64,000 nt of DNA from a virus (IMGVR_UViG_2526164690_000025), one strand, 5' to 3'; counted from the first letter of the stretch, positions 14,462-39,023 are shown. Program-made: numbers and translations. Notes: generated by a model not told the origin, from the letters alone.

Positions 14462-15001
14462 CTACCACCAACTGCTAGCTTTCTTCTCTCTAGCTTTTCC
14501 TTCGCTTTGCAGTAAATCTTTACTTCCTGTAGAAATATTTCTATTTGCATCAGCCTCAGACTGAATTACATCTGTCTTAGCTGCTCTCTCCTTCAACTCC
14601 TGCTCTATAAAATCGTTTTCTCGCTGGACACGAGCCGCTTTTGCTTGCAGTTCGAGTTTCATGCTTTCGAGTTGCAGCTTGCGAAGCTCATCCTCATAAG
14701 CTTGATCTCGCTTCTTGTCATTTGCTAGCTCGGCTTCTCGTTTCGCTCTACGTTCATTTTCTGCAGCAACACGCTGTTTTTCGCGTGCAGCAGCGGCAGA
14801 TGCTGCTTTTTCTCTTCTAATACGTTCAGCTTGTGCTTGTTGGCGAATAAGTTCTTTTCTGGCATCCTCAGCTTGCTGCTCTTTAGCTCGCCCTTCATTT
14901 TCCGCTTGAGCAATAGCAGCAATTTGACTTTGCAACGAGTTAGCCAAGGCAGTGCCTACACTAAACGTAGAAAAGATTAGAAATAAAATAATTTTATTCA
15001 T
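14462..15001 (-). CDS. secreted coiled-coil protein (signal peptide, Ala/Glu/Arg/Lys-rich)
   Basis: N-terminal signal MNKIILFLIFSTFSVGTALA, long charged coiled-coil-like region. Confidence 0.5.
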   Translation of the reverse strand: MNKIILFLIFSTFSVGTALANSLQSQIAAIAQAENEGRAKEQQAEDARKELIRQQAQAERIRREKAASAAAAREKQRVAAENERRAKREAELANDKKRDQAYEDELRKLQLESMKLELQAKAARVQRENDFIEQELKERAAKTDVIQSEADANRNISTGSKDLLQSEGKAREKKASSWW

Positions 15002-15004
15002 AAA

Positions 15005-15526
15005 TTATTTCTTTTCTGGACAAGTAGCATTTGGCTGAATTCGAGTTTCATTATCTTTAGTTGAAATAAGCACAGCAAGCCCCGTTGTAAACTGGCATGC
15101 TTTACCAACTTGAGTTGAAGTGAACACCTTAGTTCCTTCTTTATAAGTCAGTGAAACACCTTCAACAATTGTTTTATCACTAACCAAAGAACCAGCCGCT
15201 GCACCAAGAGCCGCACCACCAGTACCGCCAGCTACAGCACCCAGTGTCGATGTGCCTTTAACATTATAACCGGCAACGCCCCCAGCAACAGCTCCCAGTA
15301 CCGCACCAAATGTCTGTGCCGCTTCTTTATTAGCTTTATTATCAACTTTCACTTTAGCTGGAAGCACAGAGATAATATTGACTGTCTTTGTTTCCTGCTT
15401 CGAATTCAATTGAGCGGTATCATAAACATCGGCAGCATAATCAGCACCGCTAGATTGACACCCAGAAAGAAGAATTGCAGATACAACAAGAGCGCATAAA
15501 GTATACTTTTTAGACATAAGAATCAT
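15005..15526 (-). CDS. lipoprotein with glycine-zipper region
   Basis: Lipobox LLSGC; GAVLGAVAGGVAGY...GAVAGGTGGAALGAAAG glycine zipper. Confidence 0.6.
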   Translation of the reverse strand: MILMSKKYTLCALVVSAILLSGCQSSGADYAADVYDTAQLNSKQETKTVNIISVLPAKVKVDNKANKEAAQTFGAVLGAVAGGVAGYNVKGTSTLGAVAGGTGGAALGAAAGSLVSDKTIVEGVSLTYKEGTKVFTSTQVGKACQFTTGLAVLISTKDNETRIQPNATCPEKK

Positions 15527-15807
15527 TCCAGAAAAACAAAAACCGGCGAGAAGTTACCACGAGAACGGAAAGTAAACAAGAATACTCCCATTGACTTATA
15601 TCAATTAATCAACTTTTTATAAGCTATCCCTAACTTATTGTGTATAGCTGAAAAGTCAGAGACAAGTTCACCATCTGCATTATTTCTTAAGTTAATAGTT
15701 TATTGCTAACTTAATTTATGTATCGACTATTGATATCCATCTTAAAGTTACAATATCCCTCTGCATTATTTTTCATCACAAATAATATATCTATTGCACG
15801 ACACTCA

Positions 15808-15824
15808 TCTGCTCTAATAAATTT
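15808..15824 (+). promoter_or_regulatory. C1-operator-like site (TCTGCTCTAATAAATTT)
   Basis: 15/17 match to P1 C1 operator consensus ATTGCTCTAATAAATTT; upstream of immI-like module 1. Confidence 0.6.
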
Positions 15825-15999
15825 GTATTTTTAAGTGGCGAATGCTATCTTTTCGCATCATATTGACCTTTTAATCGTTCAGGCTTATAGTTCCCGCCGT
15901 CGTAGCAAATTCTGCGACCAGGTTTGACAGCCTGAATGATTGTGCGGACAACCGCAGATTTCCGATATTGCGGTATTTTTGTGTCCGTAAAACCGCGTT

Positions 16000-16085
16000 A
16001 CGCCCAAATTATGGTGGGGCGTGATGGGGAGGCTTCGGCCTGCTGGTTTCACAATCGCCAGTCTGTCAACCCTGTCACGTCCTGC
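16000..16085 (+). ncRNA. c4-like antisense RNA region (boundaries approximate)
   Basis: Structured leader with UUCG hairpin (gaggcttcggcctg) and boxes cacaatc (16050-16056) and ctgtcaacc (16063-16071) complementary to gattgtg (15938-15944; 16122-16128) and gtttgacag (15922-15930; 16091-16099); target box overlaps icd SD. Confidence 0.45.
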
Positions 16086-16139
16086 CACCTGTTTGACAGC
16101 GGGTAGCAGGTTGTTAAACCTGATTGTGAGGCCGTAACT

Positions 16140-16361
16140 ATGGTTAATGCCAATCCTTGCGCACGCCAAGAATTCATCTGGCGTTTCTATTCCTGTAAAA
16201 AACACCACTATCACTTCGTTATCGCAGCAACAGAAGACGAAGCACGCTCTCAATTGCCTGATGGCCCCTGCATTTTCACTGCCCGTTTTTCAACTAACTC
16301 GCGCAATTCACTTAGTTACTGGAACCTCCCCTTCTCTGCCGACGTTCAGGGGGTTTTATGA
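16140..16361 (+). CDS. icd: Icd-like small protein (73 aa)
   Basis: 73-codon ORF with SD gagg 8 nt upstream, immediately preceding and overlapping the antirepressor gene, as in P1 immI. Confidence 0.6.
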   Translation: MVNANPCARQEFIWRFYSCKKHHYHFVIAATEDEARSQLPDGPCIFTARFSTNSRNSLSYWNLPFSADVQGVL

Positions 16362-17394
16362 AAAACCTCTCGTCACCCGTAATGAAATAGCCGAAGCGAT
16401 CGCTTTGCATACAACCTGTATGCCGACACGGGAGATCCCCGGCGCAATTGCCAACTATTTCATGATAACCAGGCGTTTTTATACCCGAACAGATAAGGCT
16501 GTGATCAACAGGCTACTGATAGCCGAGATCAGGGATTATTTGATTGAACAAGGACGTCTACGTTACGCAACGGTGGCAGCAGAAATGAGAAAGGAGGCGC
16601 GCAGAATGACCGGTAATAATTTGAATGTTGAAAAACCAGCACCTGTTGCTTTAGCTACGCCATCACCAACTGTGAATGTTATCTCCAACACTGGAGACAC
16701 AATCGACAGCCAGACACTGTTAAAGATGGTCAATGAAGCGCGTAAGTTATGTGGGGAACCAGAGGTTCGGAACAACAAATTCATCGAAAAAATACTCGAT
16801 GAGCTTGATGGTGAGCACTACACAAAAAGTGTAGTGGAAAAAATGAACAAAACATCAATGCTTGTCATAACCATGACCTACAAACAAGCCCTGCGAGTCG
16901 CCGCGCGCGAATCAAAAGCTGTCCGCCGTTCGCTGATCGACAAACTGGAAGAATTGCAGCAGGCAAACTCCCCTACCCCATCGATCCCCCAAACATTACC
17001 AGAAGCCCTACGCCTGGCTGCCGAGTTGGCAGAACAGAAAATGCATCTGGAACAACAGCTGGTGGCCGCAGCACCTAAAGTCGATTTTGCCGACCGGGTA
17101 TCAGTGGCTAATGGAATCCTGATCGGTAACTTTGCAAAGGTCGTTGGACTTAAGCAAAACGCCCTTTTCTCATGGTTGCGCCAGAACGGCATTCTCATGG
17201 CTTTTGGTGCGCGCAAAAACGTACCGCGCCAACAGTACATCAACGCCGGGTATTTCACGGTGAAAGAAGTGGTGCTGGATGATGAAAATGGCTACCAGAT
17301 ACGGCTGACGCCCCAATTAACGGGTAAAGGCCAGCAGTGGTTAACTCGCAAGCTACTTGATGCTGGTTTGTTAAAACCAGTAGCAATAGGTTAA
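16357..17394 (+). CDS. ant: antirepressor (Ant-like, KilAC-type C-terminal domain), copy 1; start codon unresolved
   Basis: Homologous to 44048-45082 over the whole length; in this copy the ATG overlapping the icd stop (16358) is out of frame by 1 nt; the frame stays open upstream to ATG 16147. Confidence 0.6.
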   Translation, partial: YEKPLVTRNEIAEAIALHTTCMPTREIPGAIANYFMITRRFYTRTDKAVINRLLIAEIRDYLIEQGRLRYATVAAEMRKEARRMTGNNLNVEKPAPVALATPSPTVNVISNTGDTIDSQTLLKMVNEARKLCGEPEVRNNKFIEKILDELDGEHYTKSVVEKMNKTSMLVITMTYKQALRVAARESKAVRRSLIDKLEELQQANSPTPSIPQTLPEALRLAAELAEQKMHLEQQLVAAAPKVDFADRVSVANGILIGNFAKVVGLKQNALFSWLRQNGILMAFGARKNVPRQQYINAGYFTVKEVVLDDENGYQIRLTPQLTGKGQQWLTRKLLDAGLLKPVAIG

Positions 17395-17406
17395 CAAAAG
17401 AAAAAA

Positions 17407-17431
17407 ACCTGCCAGCAAACTGGCAGGTTTC
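17407..17431 (+). terminator. stem-loop after ant copy 1
   Basis: acctgccag-caaa-ctggcaggt followed by ttt; preceded by A7. Confidence 0.4.
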
Positions 17432-17472
17432 TGAGCAGATCGTCCAACCCGATCTGGATCGAGTTAGAAAAA

Positions 17473-17489
17473 TTTGCTCTAATAAATTT
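17473..17489 (+). promoter_or_regulatory. C1-operator-like site (TTTGCTCTAATAAATTT)
   Basis: 16/17 match to consensus; upstream of kilA-like gene. Confidence 0.6.
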
Positions 17490-17558
17490 CGTTTTCTAAG
17501 TGCAAAGAATCACCATTTCGAGCTGGTGATTGAAGGTTGATGCAAATTTGGAGAAAAA

Positions 17559-18359
17559 ATGCAACAAACATTCAATGCGGATATGAATATATCAAACCTT
17601 CATCAAAATGTCGATCCTTCAACCACTCTGCCTGTTATTTGTGGTGTTGAAATTACGACCGACCGCGCTGGCCGTTACAACCTTAATGCTCTACACAGAG
17701 CGAGCGGACTCGGTGCCCATAAAGCGCCAGCTCAATGGCTAAGAACGCTGTCAGCCAAACAGCTCATCGAAGAGCTTGAAAAAGAAACTATGCAGAATTG
17801 CATAGTTTCGTTCGAAGGCCGTGGCGGCGGCACTTTTGCCCATGAATTGCTCGCAGTGGAGTACGCAGGTTGGATTTCTCCCGCGTTTCGGCTGAAGGTA
17901 AACCAGACATTTATCGACTATCGAGCTGGAAGATTACAACCTGCTATTCCGAAGAGCCTCCCAGAAGCTCTCCGTTTGGCTGCCGACCTGGCAGAGCAAA
18001 AGCAACGGCTGGAGCAAAAAATGCTGATGGATGCACCTAAAGTCGAATTCGCCGAACGCGTTGCTACCGCCAGCGGGGTTCTAATCGGCAACTATGCCAA
18101 AGTGCTCGGCCTGGGCCAAAACTATCTCTTCACCTGGTTGCGTGATAACGGAATTCTGATCGCAACCGGTGAACGCAGGAACGTCCCCAAACAAGAATAC
18201 ATATCCCGTGGGTATTTCACCCTTAAAGAAACCGTGATCGATACAAGCAATGGAAGCAGGATTTCTTTCACGACTCGTATAACCGGCAAAGGTCAGCAGT
18301 GGCTGATGAAGCGATTGCTTGATGCTGGTGTGCTGGTACCTGTCGCGGCAGCGCGCTAA
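17559..18359 (+). CDS. kilA: KilA-N domain protein with antirepressor-type C-terminal domain
   Basis: 266 aa; C-terminal region PEALRLAADLAEQK...APKVEFAERV...GNYAKVLGL shared with both Ant copies. Confidence 0.6.
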   Translation: MQQTFNADMNISNLHQNVDPSTTLPVICGVEITTDRAGRYNLNALHRASGLGAHKAPAQWLRTLSAKQLIEELEKETMQNCIVSFEGRGGGTFAHELLAVEYAGWISPAFRLKVNQTFIDYRAGRLQPAIPKSLPEALRLAADLAEQKQRLEQKMLMDAPKVEFAERVATASGVLIGNYAKVLGLGQNYLFTWLRDNGILIATGERRNVPKQEYISRGYFTLKETVIDTSNGSRISFTTRITGKGQQWLMKRLLDAGVLVPVAAAR

Positions 18360-18388: not shown

Positions 18389-18967
18389 ATGCTGGCTAAA
18401 GTCACTTTCCTGAGCTGTATAACGATGAGCGATTTTACTTTTTCTGGCTATGAATTGGCCTGCTTTGTAACACACTCCGGTCTATCCCGTAGCGCCGGGC
18501 ATATCCTGTCGCAATGTGCAAATCTCGCGGCAACAACCAGTGAATACTTCATTCACAAGCCTCACCGCCTGATCGCGGCAGAAACTGGTTATAGCCAATC
18601 AACCGTCGTTCGTGCATTCCGTGAAGCTGTAAACAAAGGAATCCTGTCAGTAGAGATTGTTATCGGCGATCACCGTGAACGTCGCGCTAACCTGTACCGG
18701 TTTACACCATCCTTTTTGGCCTTCGCACAACAAGCAAAAAATGCGCTGATTGAAAGCAAATTAAAGATCTCTTCAGCGGCAACCAAGGTTAAAGCTGTTC
18801 TCGCTAAGACATTGGCTTTATTTAATTTTTTATCCACACCCCCATGTCAAAATGATACCCCCTCCCCCTGTCAGGATGACGTGGCAATAAAGAATAAGAA
18901 GTCACAATTTAAAAAACAAAAAGATCAGTTTCCGGCGCTGCCGGAACGACCAAACTCAAAAAATTGA
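18389..18967 (+). CDS. HTH DNA-binding protein, possible lytic-replication RepL-like
   Basis: 192-aa ORF with helix-turn-helix-like segment (TGYSQSTVVRAFREAVNKGIL); position after kilA as repL in P1. Confidence 0.35.
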   Translation: MLAKVTFLSCITMSDFTFSGYELACFVTHSGLSRSAGHILSQCANLAATTSEYFIHKPHRLIAAETGYSQSTVVRAFREAVNKGILSVEIVIGDHRERRANLYRFTPSFLAFAQQAKNALIESKLKISSAATKVKAVLAKTLALFNFLSTPPCQNDTPSPCQDDVAIKNKKSQFKKQKDQFPALPERPNSKN

Positions 18968-38540: not shown

Positions 38541-38615
38541 GATGGTGTAGCTCAGCGGTAGAGCAGTTGGCTGTTAACCAACTGGTCGGTAGTTCGAATC
38601 CACCCACCATCGCCA
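38541..38615 (+). tRNA. tRNA-Asn (GTT)
   Basis: Cloverleaf: acceptor GATGGTG/CACCATC, anticodon loop CTGTTAA, T-loop TTCGAAT, 3' GCCA. Confidence 0.8.
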
Positions 38616-38620
38616 CTTTA

Positions 38621-38707
38621 GGGGAGTTAGTCCGTAGGGGTAGCGGGGTAGACTGTAAATCTACTGTCATTGCGACTTGGGTGGTTCGACTCCATCACTC
38701 CCCACCA
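38621..38707 (+). tRNA. tRNA-Tyr-like (GTA), class II with long variable arm; D-arm irregular
   Basis: Acceptor GGGGAGT/ACTCCCC, anticodon arm GTAGA-CTGTAAA-TCTAC, variable stem-loop, T-loop TTCGACT, 3' ACCA. Confidence 0.55.
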
Positions 38708-38711
38708 CATT

Positions 38712-38787
38712 GCCGATTTAGCTCAGTTGGTAGAGCAGTCGCTTTGTAAGCGAATGGTCAGCGGTTCGATCCCGTTAATCGGCACCA
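38712..38787 (+). tRNA. tRNA-Thr (TGT)
   Basis: Acceptor GCCGATT/AATCGGC, anticodon loop TTTGTAA, T-loop TTCGATC, 3' ACCA. Confidence 0.8.
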
Positions 38788-38790
38788 ACA

Positions 38791-38875
38791 TAACAGGTAA
38801 GAGCATTCTCCCTTATGGGGCCTGGCTTAAATGCATCGAGTGCTCTTACCGTTGTGATGAAGTGCAGATCTTAGA
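38791..38875 (+). repeat. structured repeat element 1 (inverted repeat ggtaagagca/tgctcttacc)
   Basis: Shares gtaacaggtaagagcattctcc and ccgttgYgRtgaaKgc blocks with element 3. Confidence 0.4.
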
Positions 38876-39023
38876 AGCAACCAGAAGATAAGCATCTGGC
38901 TTCACAACATAAACCGCAGGAACGACCAATAAACGGTAGTCCGTATGGAGAACACCCCGTTGAGGAAGAGGCCTGGCCGGAACCGTAACCGGCGACTGGT
39001 AATGTGTGTAAATGGAGCGAAAT

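Follow-up and report, generated by a model that had tools for sequence, protein, structure and literature searches.

Introduction

The c4 RNA was among the first trans-acting antisense RNAs described. It is encoded in the immI operon of the phage-plasmids P1 and P7, the mechanism of which was reportedly worked out by Citron and Schuster in 1990 and 1992, Biere et al. in 1992 and Riedel et al. in 1993, and further by Heinrich et al. in 1994 and Hartmann et al. in 1995. RNase P generates the 5′ end of c4 in P1.

Passages of three publications (PMC8198154, PMC8546580, PMC12197685) describe c4 of P1 as a processed RNA of 77 nt. According to passages of the same sources, expression of the antirepressor gene ant in P1 requires translation of the preceding icd reading frame, and an untranslated icd leads to premature termination of transcription.

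Two other leader RNAs resemble this arrangement. IsrK of the Salmonella prophage Gifsy-1 is a short terminated RNA that switches on, in trans, a small antirepressor-coupled ORF located on its own read-through transcript (PMC4825925). The CI RNA of phage P4, a comparison drawn by the IsrK paper itself (PMC4825925), is likewise a small RNA derived from a leader, and it pairs with the sequences seqA and seqC on both sides of itself. P4 CI, however, does not block a ribosome-binding site in front of an antirepressor gene but brings transcription of the replication genes to a premature end.

About one in ten complete E. coli genomes (~10%) contains a P1-like phage-plasmid, and resistance genes are frequent on these elements. 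Here, we analyze two modules of the immI type in a 64,000-nt stretch of viral DNA (IMGVR_UViG_2526164690_000025), which is referred to in its entirety as the window. Copy 1, the main subject of this work, begins at position 15808, and copy 2 begins at position 43497. The features of both modules described below lie on the plus strand.

Identification of the immI leader

Positions 15808–16142 very probably form the leader that regulates the immI operon in a phage-plasmid of the P1/P7 type, with a c4 RNA silencing icd and ant. The element is already known, being the textbook immI leader of P1 and P7 and not a new one, and the identification of c4 adds little in itself, since a standard Rfam scan suffices to detect it. 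The initial annotation had called this segment a c4-like antisense RNA leader and proposed an Rfam search as a check. When this search was run on the whole window, both families of the system scored above their gathering cut-offs. The C4 antisense RNA family (RF01695) matched at 16007–16092 over the full model (1–87) with 68.4 bits (E = 3.4e-11; cut-off 45), while the a1/b1 target family (RF03163) matched at 15885–15938 with 47.1 bits (E = 9.3e-9), a margin of only 0.4 bits over its cut-off of 46.7. The match to the annotated features of P1 and P7, the fold of the RNA, the covariation of its pairing boxes and the examination of a minus-strand ORF, all described below, back the same assignment.

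Other Rfam matches in the window were located at 1011–1209, 5448–5517 and 38541–40804, and comprised IS009 RNA (192 bits), IS10 RNA-OUT (99 bits) and four tRNA genes. The position of the four tRNA genes is that of the P1 tRNA cluster.

The leader together with icd and ant is 94.6% identical to P1, 93.8% identical to P7 and 99% identical to phage JL22. The nearest plasmid in this region is p88_0502-1 from a bovine E. coli O111:H11 strain, which equals positions 14590–17900 save for one base over the 3.3 kb compared. The immI region as such was detected in 571 of 5426 complete E. coli genomes.

A base-for-base alignment with the annotated c4, a1, b1, a2, b2, Op(c4), P51a/P51b, icd and ant features of P1 and P7 revealed the order Op(c4), P51a/P51b, a1/b1, c4, a2/b2 with the ribosome-binding site, icd, ant1/ant2, kilA and repL. 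The parts of immI in P1 and P7 follow in the same order, including the 77-nt c4, the ATGA overlap at ant1 and the succession of kilA and repL. In the window, kilA occupies positions 17559–18359 and repL starts at 18389, and copy 1 has kept its canonical position ahead of this pair. Family membership, fold, synteny and covariation are therefore established for copy 1 itself, while its transcription, its processing, the action of its c4 in trans and the translational block would follow the example of P1 and P7.

Open reading frames across the leader

In PGAP-annotated plasmid records of this lineage (L003, L125), icd and ant are listed and a c4 feature is absent, even though c4 clearly exceeds the Rfam cut-off there. 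A view limited to genes thus loses the regulator, and the ORF track of the window shows a spurious minus-strand ORF (15885–16253, 122 aa) across the leader. If this ORF were a real protein gene, the RNA features would be incidental. The ORF does exist in the ORF list, and a stop-free minus-strand frame over c4 is common among relatives, extending over at least 87 codons in most of the 114 homologue segments. Stop-free length consequently could not reject the ORF, as the frame is open in most relatives, but a comparison of frameshifts could. Single-base indels separate copy 1 and P7 from P1 and copy 2, and they leave the last ~40 residues unrelated while the DNA remains conserved, indicating that the open frame results from base composition and not from selection on a protein. 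The ORF has no Pfam match. The sites that vary in the region are the a and b boxes; they change together at three positions so that RNA complementarity is preserved, a pattern that a protein gene would not explain. We consider the probability that this ORF is a protein gene to be negligible. The initial annotation had already judged the ORF implausible and had named its conservation as a protein as the finding that would speak against the RNA; given the indels, the ORF is not conserved as a protein.

A second ORF, on the plus strand (15936–16106, 56 aa), corresponds to the original reading of the 1980s, in which C4 was a repressor protein, and GenBank X15639 still annotates 'c4: CDS'. The ORF is present in the window, but a 1-nt indel seen in the alignment at ~15990 would shift its frame, and it has no match in Pfam. 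The covariation of the boxes and the Rfam structure fit an RNA and not a C4 protein, and we give the protein reading hardly any credence. Citron and Schuster reportedly established c4 as an RNA in 1990, and a C4 protein is rejected in the literature for P1 and P7.

Operator, promoters and the a1/b1 half of the leader

The leader begins with the C1 repressor operator Op(c4), formerly Op51 (15808–15824, TCTGCTCTAATAAATTT). The initial annotation had noted a C1-operator-like site at this position, and the sequence is indeed identical to the 'monovalent C1-controlled operator Op(c4)' of P7. It agrees with the C1 operator consensus ATTGCTCTAATAAATTT at 15 of 17 positions (2 mismatches), and the window contains 11 sites of the C1 operator type versus 0.3 expected by chance. 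Promoter P51a (P2c4; 15822–15851), the coordinates of which were obtained via the P1 alignment, overlaps the operator; its −35 (TTTGTAT) and −10 (TATCTT) elements are identical to those of P1. Promoter P51b (P1c4; 15863–15891), located ~40 nt downstream of the operator, is the annotated P1c4 of P1 and features TTGACC and TATAGT separated by a 17-nt spacer, with 10/12 matches in a promoter scan.

The leader transcript opens with a 5′ hairpin (15899–15918) of 7 bp and a CAAAUU loop, which represents the first helix of both the c4-a1b1 and isrK models of Rfam and is kept across 45 unique leaders, the outliers among which show compensatory changes. It is followed by a1 (15923–15930, TTTGACAG), located in the loop of a 4-bp hairpin, and by b1 (15938–15944, GATTGTG); both are homologues of the 'putative a1/b1 target site' of P1. 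Further downstream lies a terminator-like hairpin (15951–15956 with 15969–15974) followed by UUUUU at 15976–15980. An outer helix (15946–15949 with 15983–15986) surrounds it, so that the whole element spans 15946–15986. Three distant loci (L004, L065 and L107) retain both the hairpin and the outer helix and show compensatory changes in them. A simple terminator scan did not flag the hairpin at 15951–15980, since its loop of 12 nt is above the limit of the scan, and the call is based on the isrK alignment and on conservation.

The isrK model (RF01394) aligned with positions 15899–15980 over its full length (1–77) with 43 bits versus a cut-off of 50 (E = 6.2e-8). As this score is below the cut-off, it points to a resemblance in architecture and not to membership in the family. 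The alignment with this RNA of the Gifsy-1 locus (IsrK/STnc1160/orf45-anrP) covers the 5′ hairpin, the second hairpin, the terminator hairpin and the U run, and in both systems these are followed by a processed RNA of ~80 nt and a short ORF that is ATGA-coupled to the antirepressor gene (PMC4825925). The short RNA of Gifsy-1 acts in trans to switch on translation of the ORF that follows, whereas for the a1/b1 leader of P1 the resemblance is one of architecture alone.

By analogy with P1, where the annotation itself keeps the word 'putative', a1/b1 probably serves as a second binding site for c4, either as a competitor or as a folding partner. The likeness to IsrK also makes it a reasonable idea that a short a1/b1 RNA may be released and titrate c4, thereby switching the antirepressor on.

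The c4 RNA

The c4 RNA of copy 1 extends over 77 nt (16013–16089), with its ends taken from the misc_RNA c4 feature of P1 and a 3′ end reading GCCACC. Its predicted fold consists of a long closing stem with two hairpins inside; the second of these displays the box b′ in its loop, and a′ occupies the junction behind it. The fold has an energy of −42.2 kcal/mol and a z-score of −4.77, none of 200 shuffled sequences folded as well, and the minimum-energy structure equals the centroid. A consensus over 45 unique leaders yielded the same fold, to which the outliers add compensatory pairs. P1 has the same acceptor-like (tRNA-like) stem and the same GCCACC 3′ end. In total, c4 of copy 1 is 2 nt apart from that of P1, both in b′, and differs from that of P7 by 2 nt in a′ and one stem base.

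The UUCG-capped hairpin described in the initial annotation is present within c4, although it occupies 16030–16041 (AGGC-UUCG-GCCU) and not 16028–16041. The box b′ (UCACAAUC, 16049–16056, with cacaatc at 16050–16056) is located in a 9-nt loop, and a′ (CUGUCAAC, 16063–16070; ctgtcaac) in the single-stranded junction. The two boxes had been described as complementary to sequences on both sides of c4. Targets were indeed found on both sides, but the proposed partners 'ctgtcaacc' and 'gtttgacag' are not fully complementary: the continuous a pairing is 7 nt long (CUGUCAA with UUGACAG), as annotated in P1. The pairing of b′ with b2 comprises 8 nt (UCACAAUC with GAUUGUGA). Calculated duplex energies for the b boxes were −15.4/−15.6 kcal/mol for cognate pairs versus −10.4/−8.2 kcal/mol for non-cognate pairs, the latter values making use of stem bases that are not free. 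Counted by eye, cognate boxes form 8 of 8 pairs, and non-cognate boxes 3 scattered pairs of 7.

Downstream target sites, icd and ant

Immediately after c4 lies a2 (16092–16099, TTTGACAG), the homologue of P1 a2, with its c4-pairing part at 16093–16099. The 8-nt b2 site (16122–16129, GATTGTGA) is likewise the homologue of the site annotated in P1, where these sequences are labeled 'target site a2/b2 ... repression of icd ant translation'. The composite of TTTGACAG followed by GATTGTG occurs exactly twice in the 64 kb, at 15923–15944 and at 16092–16128, versus 0.01 occurrences expected. The Shine-Dalgarno sequence of icd (GAGG, 16128–16131) shares 2 nt with b2, and the icd ATG follows at 16140, in agreement with the overlap between the downstream box and the icd ribosome-binding site that had been proposed at the outset.

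The icd gene (16140–16361, 73 codons), assigned from the ORF list and the annotation of the nearest records as a cell-division inhibitor and ant coupling ORF, is labeled in these records as 'host cell division inhibitor Icd-like protein'; a Pfam search returned no family for it. It is followed by the antirepressor gene ant1/ant2 (16358–17394), in which the ant1 ATG at 16358 overlaps the icd stop codon within ATGA. The internal start of ant2 (ATG at 16606) is preceded by AAGGAGG, and ant2 is intact. The KilAC/ANT domain of Ant was detected with Pfam (E = 1e-30).

In contrast to its relatives, copy 1 has a deletion of 1 nt near the start of ant1, in the A run at 16361–16365 (A5 instead of A6), so that the junction reads ATGAAAAACC versus ATGAAAAAACC or an in-frame equivalent. 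The frame is shifted after codon 3 and reaches a stop after 10 codons, beyond which the remainder of the gene is open in another frame. This change is private to copy 1, as A6, or a sequence that keeps the frame, is present in all of the more than 100 homologues, and the missing A is the sole difference from p88_0502-1 over 3.3 kb. Either an error in sequencing the homopolymer or a genuine inactivation may account for it. With ant1 frameshifted, the module may no longer deliver the full antirepressor, and c4 may mainly control icd and a residual ant2.

The frameshift could also mark copy 1 as a decaying, non-functional immI remnant, leaving copy 2 at 43.5 kb as the working switch. Against this, the operator, both promoters, all six boxes, c4, icd and ant2 are intact and equal to p88_0502-1 over 3.3 kb, the single A lost from a homopolymer run may be no more than a sequencing error, and the canonical place before kilA-repL has been retained. 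We regard decay of the module as unlikely.

The +1 frame over icd is open in both copies (16147–16357 and 43837–44073, ~70 codons). In copy 1, the ant1 frameshift joins this frame to ant, which gives rise to a 415-codon ORF in the ORF list.

The a2–b2 spacer CAGGUUGUUAAACCUG resembles a′ and can pair locally with a2 (16091–16118). Its positions 16107–16121 are also able to pair over a long range with the a1 region (15920–15934), and through G-U pairs this pairing is compatible with both a alleles. It may represent an alternative conformation of the leader, or a coincidence.

Proposed regulation of icd and ant

Transferred from P1 and P7, the working of copy 1 would be as follows. Transcription would start at P51a and P51b and run through the leader into icd and ant, and the C1 operator Op(c4) would place P51a under an additional, transcriptional control by C1. 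The 77-nt c4 would be cut from the leader of its own operon. It would then expose b′ in its loop and a′ (CUGUCAA) in its junction and pair in trans with a2 and b2. Because b2 runs into the Shine-Dalgarno sequence of icd, this pairing would block icd translation, and because ant depends on icd translation, the antirepressor would not be made and C1-dependent lysogeny would be kept. The specificity of the interaction would be set by the sequences of the boxes. By analogy, c4 of copy 1 is thus expected to be processed to 77 nt, to repress icd and ant in trans, and to be needed for lysogeny.

Box alleles and covariation among relatives

We collected at least 120 IMG/VR loci using a 23-nt anchor in c4; the class frequencies given below accordingly describe a sample and not a census. 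The set used for the comparison of boxes contains 119 complete P1-family loci, comprising the listed IMG/VR matches together with P1, P7 and the window. Among the matches listed, a1 equals a2 and is the complement of a′, and b1 equals b2 and is the complement of b′, in 118 of 119 loci. These matches include at least two alleles of a and at least six alleles of b, which occur in at least 11 of the 12 combinations.

Outside the boxes, the leader is nearly invariant in an alignment of P1, P7 and both copies of the window. Each of these four elements carries one allele at both of its targets and the complement in its c4. The boxes are TTTGACAG (a) and GTTAGTG (b) in P1, TTTAGCAG and GATTGTG in P7, TTTGACAG and GATTGTG in copy 1, and TTTGACAG and GTACATG in copy 2. 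Copy 1 therefore differs from both P1 and P7, its a box being of the P1 type (UUGACAG) and its b box of the P7 type (GAUUGUG). The box class of copy 1 was found in at least 12 of the 119 records, 11 of them from IMG/VR, and that of copy 2 in at least 11. Judged from the box sequences, the combination in copy 1, a mixture of P1 and P7 alleles, is common in nature.

The lone exception among the matches listed is L045 (IMGVR_UViG_2565956613_000015), in which b2 reads GTTAGTG versus ACGAATG in b1 and CATTCGTG in b′. The L045 contig is 4.9 kb long, and the genome it comes from also holds a module of the GTTAGTG type. The shortness of the contig and the two modules of its genome make an assembly chimera probable; if the mismatch is genuine, c4 of L045 would not control its own module.

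The three distant loci mentioned above (L004, L065 and L107) have wholly different box sequences and keep the layout. At the level of these alignments, a layout preserved despite changed boxes is the classic signature of RNA-RNA recognition, and it is this arrangement that the two Rfam families represent. The locus in L004 (3400–3670), which originates from a metagenome-assembled genome (MAG) of Achromobacter deleyi, has a1/b1, a terminator hairpin, c4 and a2/b2 at the ribosome-binding site, with boxes GTAAAAGG and CCTTTTAC. The layout of this locus indicates that the c4 design extends to Betaproteobacteria.

A second module and co-resident modules

Rfam, alignment, operator and exact box searches revealed a second c4-icd-ant module in the window, copy 2 (43497–45082). 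It comprises a bivalent (palindromic) C1 operator (43497–43529), a1/b1 (43614–43635), c4 (43703–43779), a2/b2 (43782–43818), icd (43830–44051) and ant (44048–45082). The Rfam scores in this copy are 70.7 bits for C4 (43697–43782) and 52 bits for a1b1 (43577–43629). The a boxes of the two copies are the same, whereas the b boxes of copy 2 are GTACATG/CAUGUAC instead. According to exact box searches, the full a and b target of each c4 of the window occurs solely in its own module. The element thus differs from P1 and P7 in carrying a further module with another b box on the same replicon.

Copy 2 is located between ban/dbn and the convergent tail genes, an arrangement also seen in the plasmid pE2865-1, and is 100% identical to pE2865-1 and to the plasmid NZ_AP027182.1. 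Among the records of a phage collection, identity over most of copy 2 did not rise above ~83%.

The presence of several modules is not confined to the window. The region was found at 712 places in 585 E. coli records, and about one-fifth of these records contain it more than once. Of the 105 genomes or contigs represented by the matches listed, at least 12 carry two or three modules, amounting to 20 co-resident pairs. Not one of these 20 pairs from the matches listed shares both boxes. Taken separately, the a box is shared by 10 of the 20, which is the random expectation, and the b box by 1 of 20 versus 4.3 expected, a weak difference (P ~0.05). The lack of pairs identical in both boxes is what would be expected of a regulator acting in trans, which it suggests at the level of sequence.

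The same counts bear on whether c4 leaves its own transcript. All six boxes lie on one transcript, and the consensus fold offers alternative long-range pairings, for instance between the a1 region and the a2–b2 spacer; the leader might then act in cis only, in an attenuator-like manner, with a′ and b′ pairing within their own transcript and no free c4 acting in trans. However, passages of the literature describe complementation by P1 c4 in trans, and the 0/20 pairs sharing both boxes among the matches listed also speak against such a leader, as selection against shared boxes makes sense only if the RNA diffuses. We consider an exclusively cis-acting leader very improbable, although pairing in cis may take place in addition, ahead of processing. 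A diffusible c4 acting in trans remains the preferred reading.

Taken with the IsrK likeness, these data allow a wider and much more tentative proposal, in which three things hold jointly: the two boxes form a combinatorial RNA address code, new immunity types arise by patchwise exchange of boxes, and an IsrK-like leader RNA titrates c4. We regard this joint proposal as possible but rather doubtful. If it is true, a difference in either box would be enough to make two modules independent, and one phage-plasmid could carry two or three antirepressor switches without cross-talk, as with the two modules of the window, which have the same a and different b boxes. The boxes are interleaved along the leader (a1 b1 ... 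b′ a′ ... a2 b2), which makes a new combination impossible by a single crossover. For the combinations to spread, boxes must therefore have been exchanged in patches and more than once, with selection favoring new types of immunity.

Immunity specificity in this group appears to result from mixing and matching two short boxes, and modules of several types occur together on many plasmids. Should this be confirmed, mutual exclusion or induction among P1-like elements would be predictable from the box type. Of this analysis, only the combinatorial box code and the co-resident modules merit further work. Examples of contigs with several modules include one that carries L016, L079 and L108 and another that carries L019, L054 and L103.
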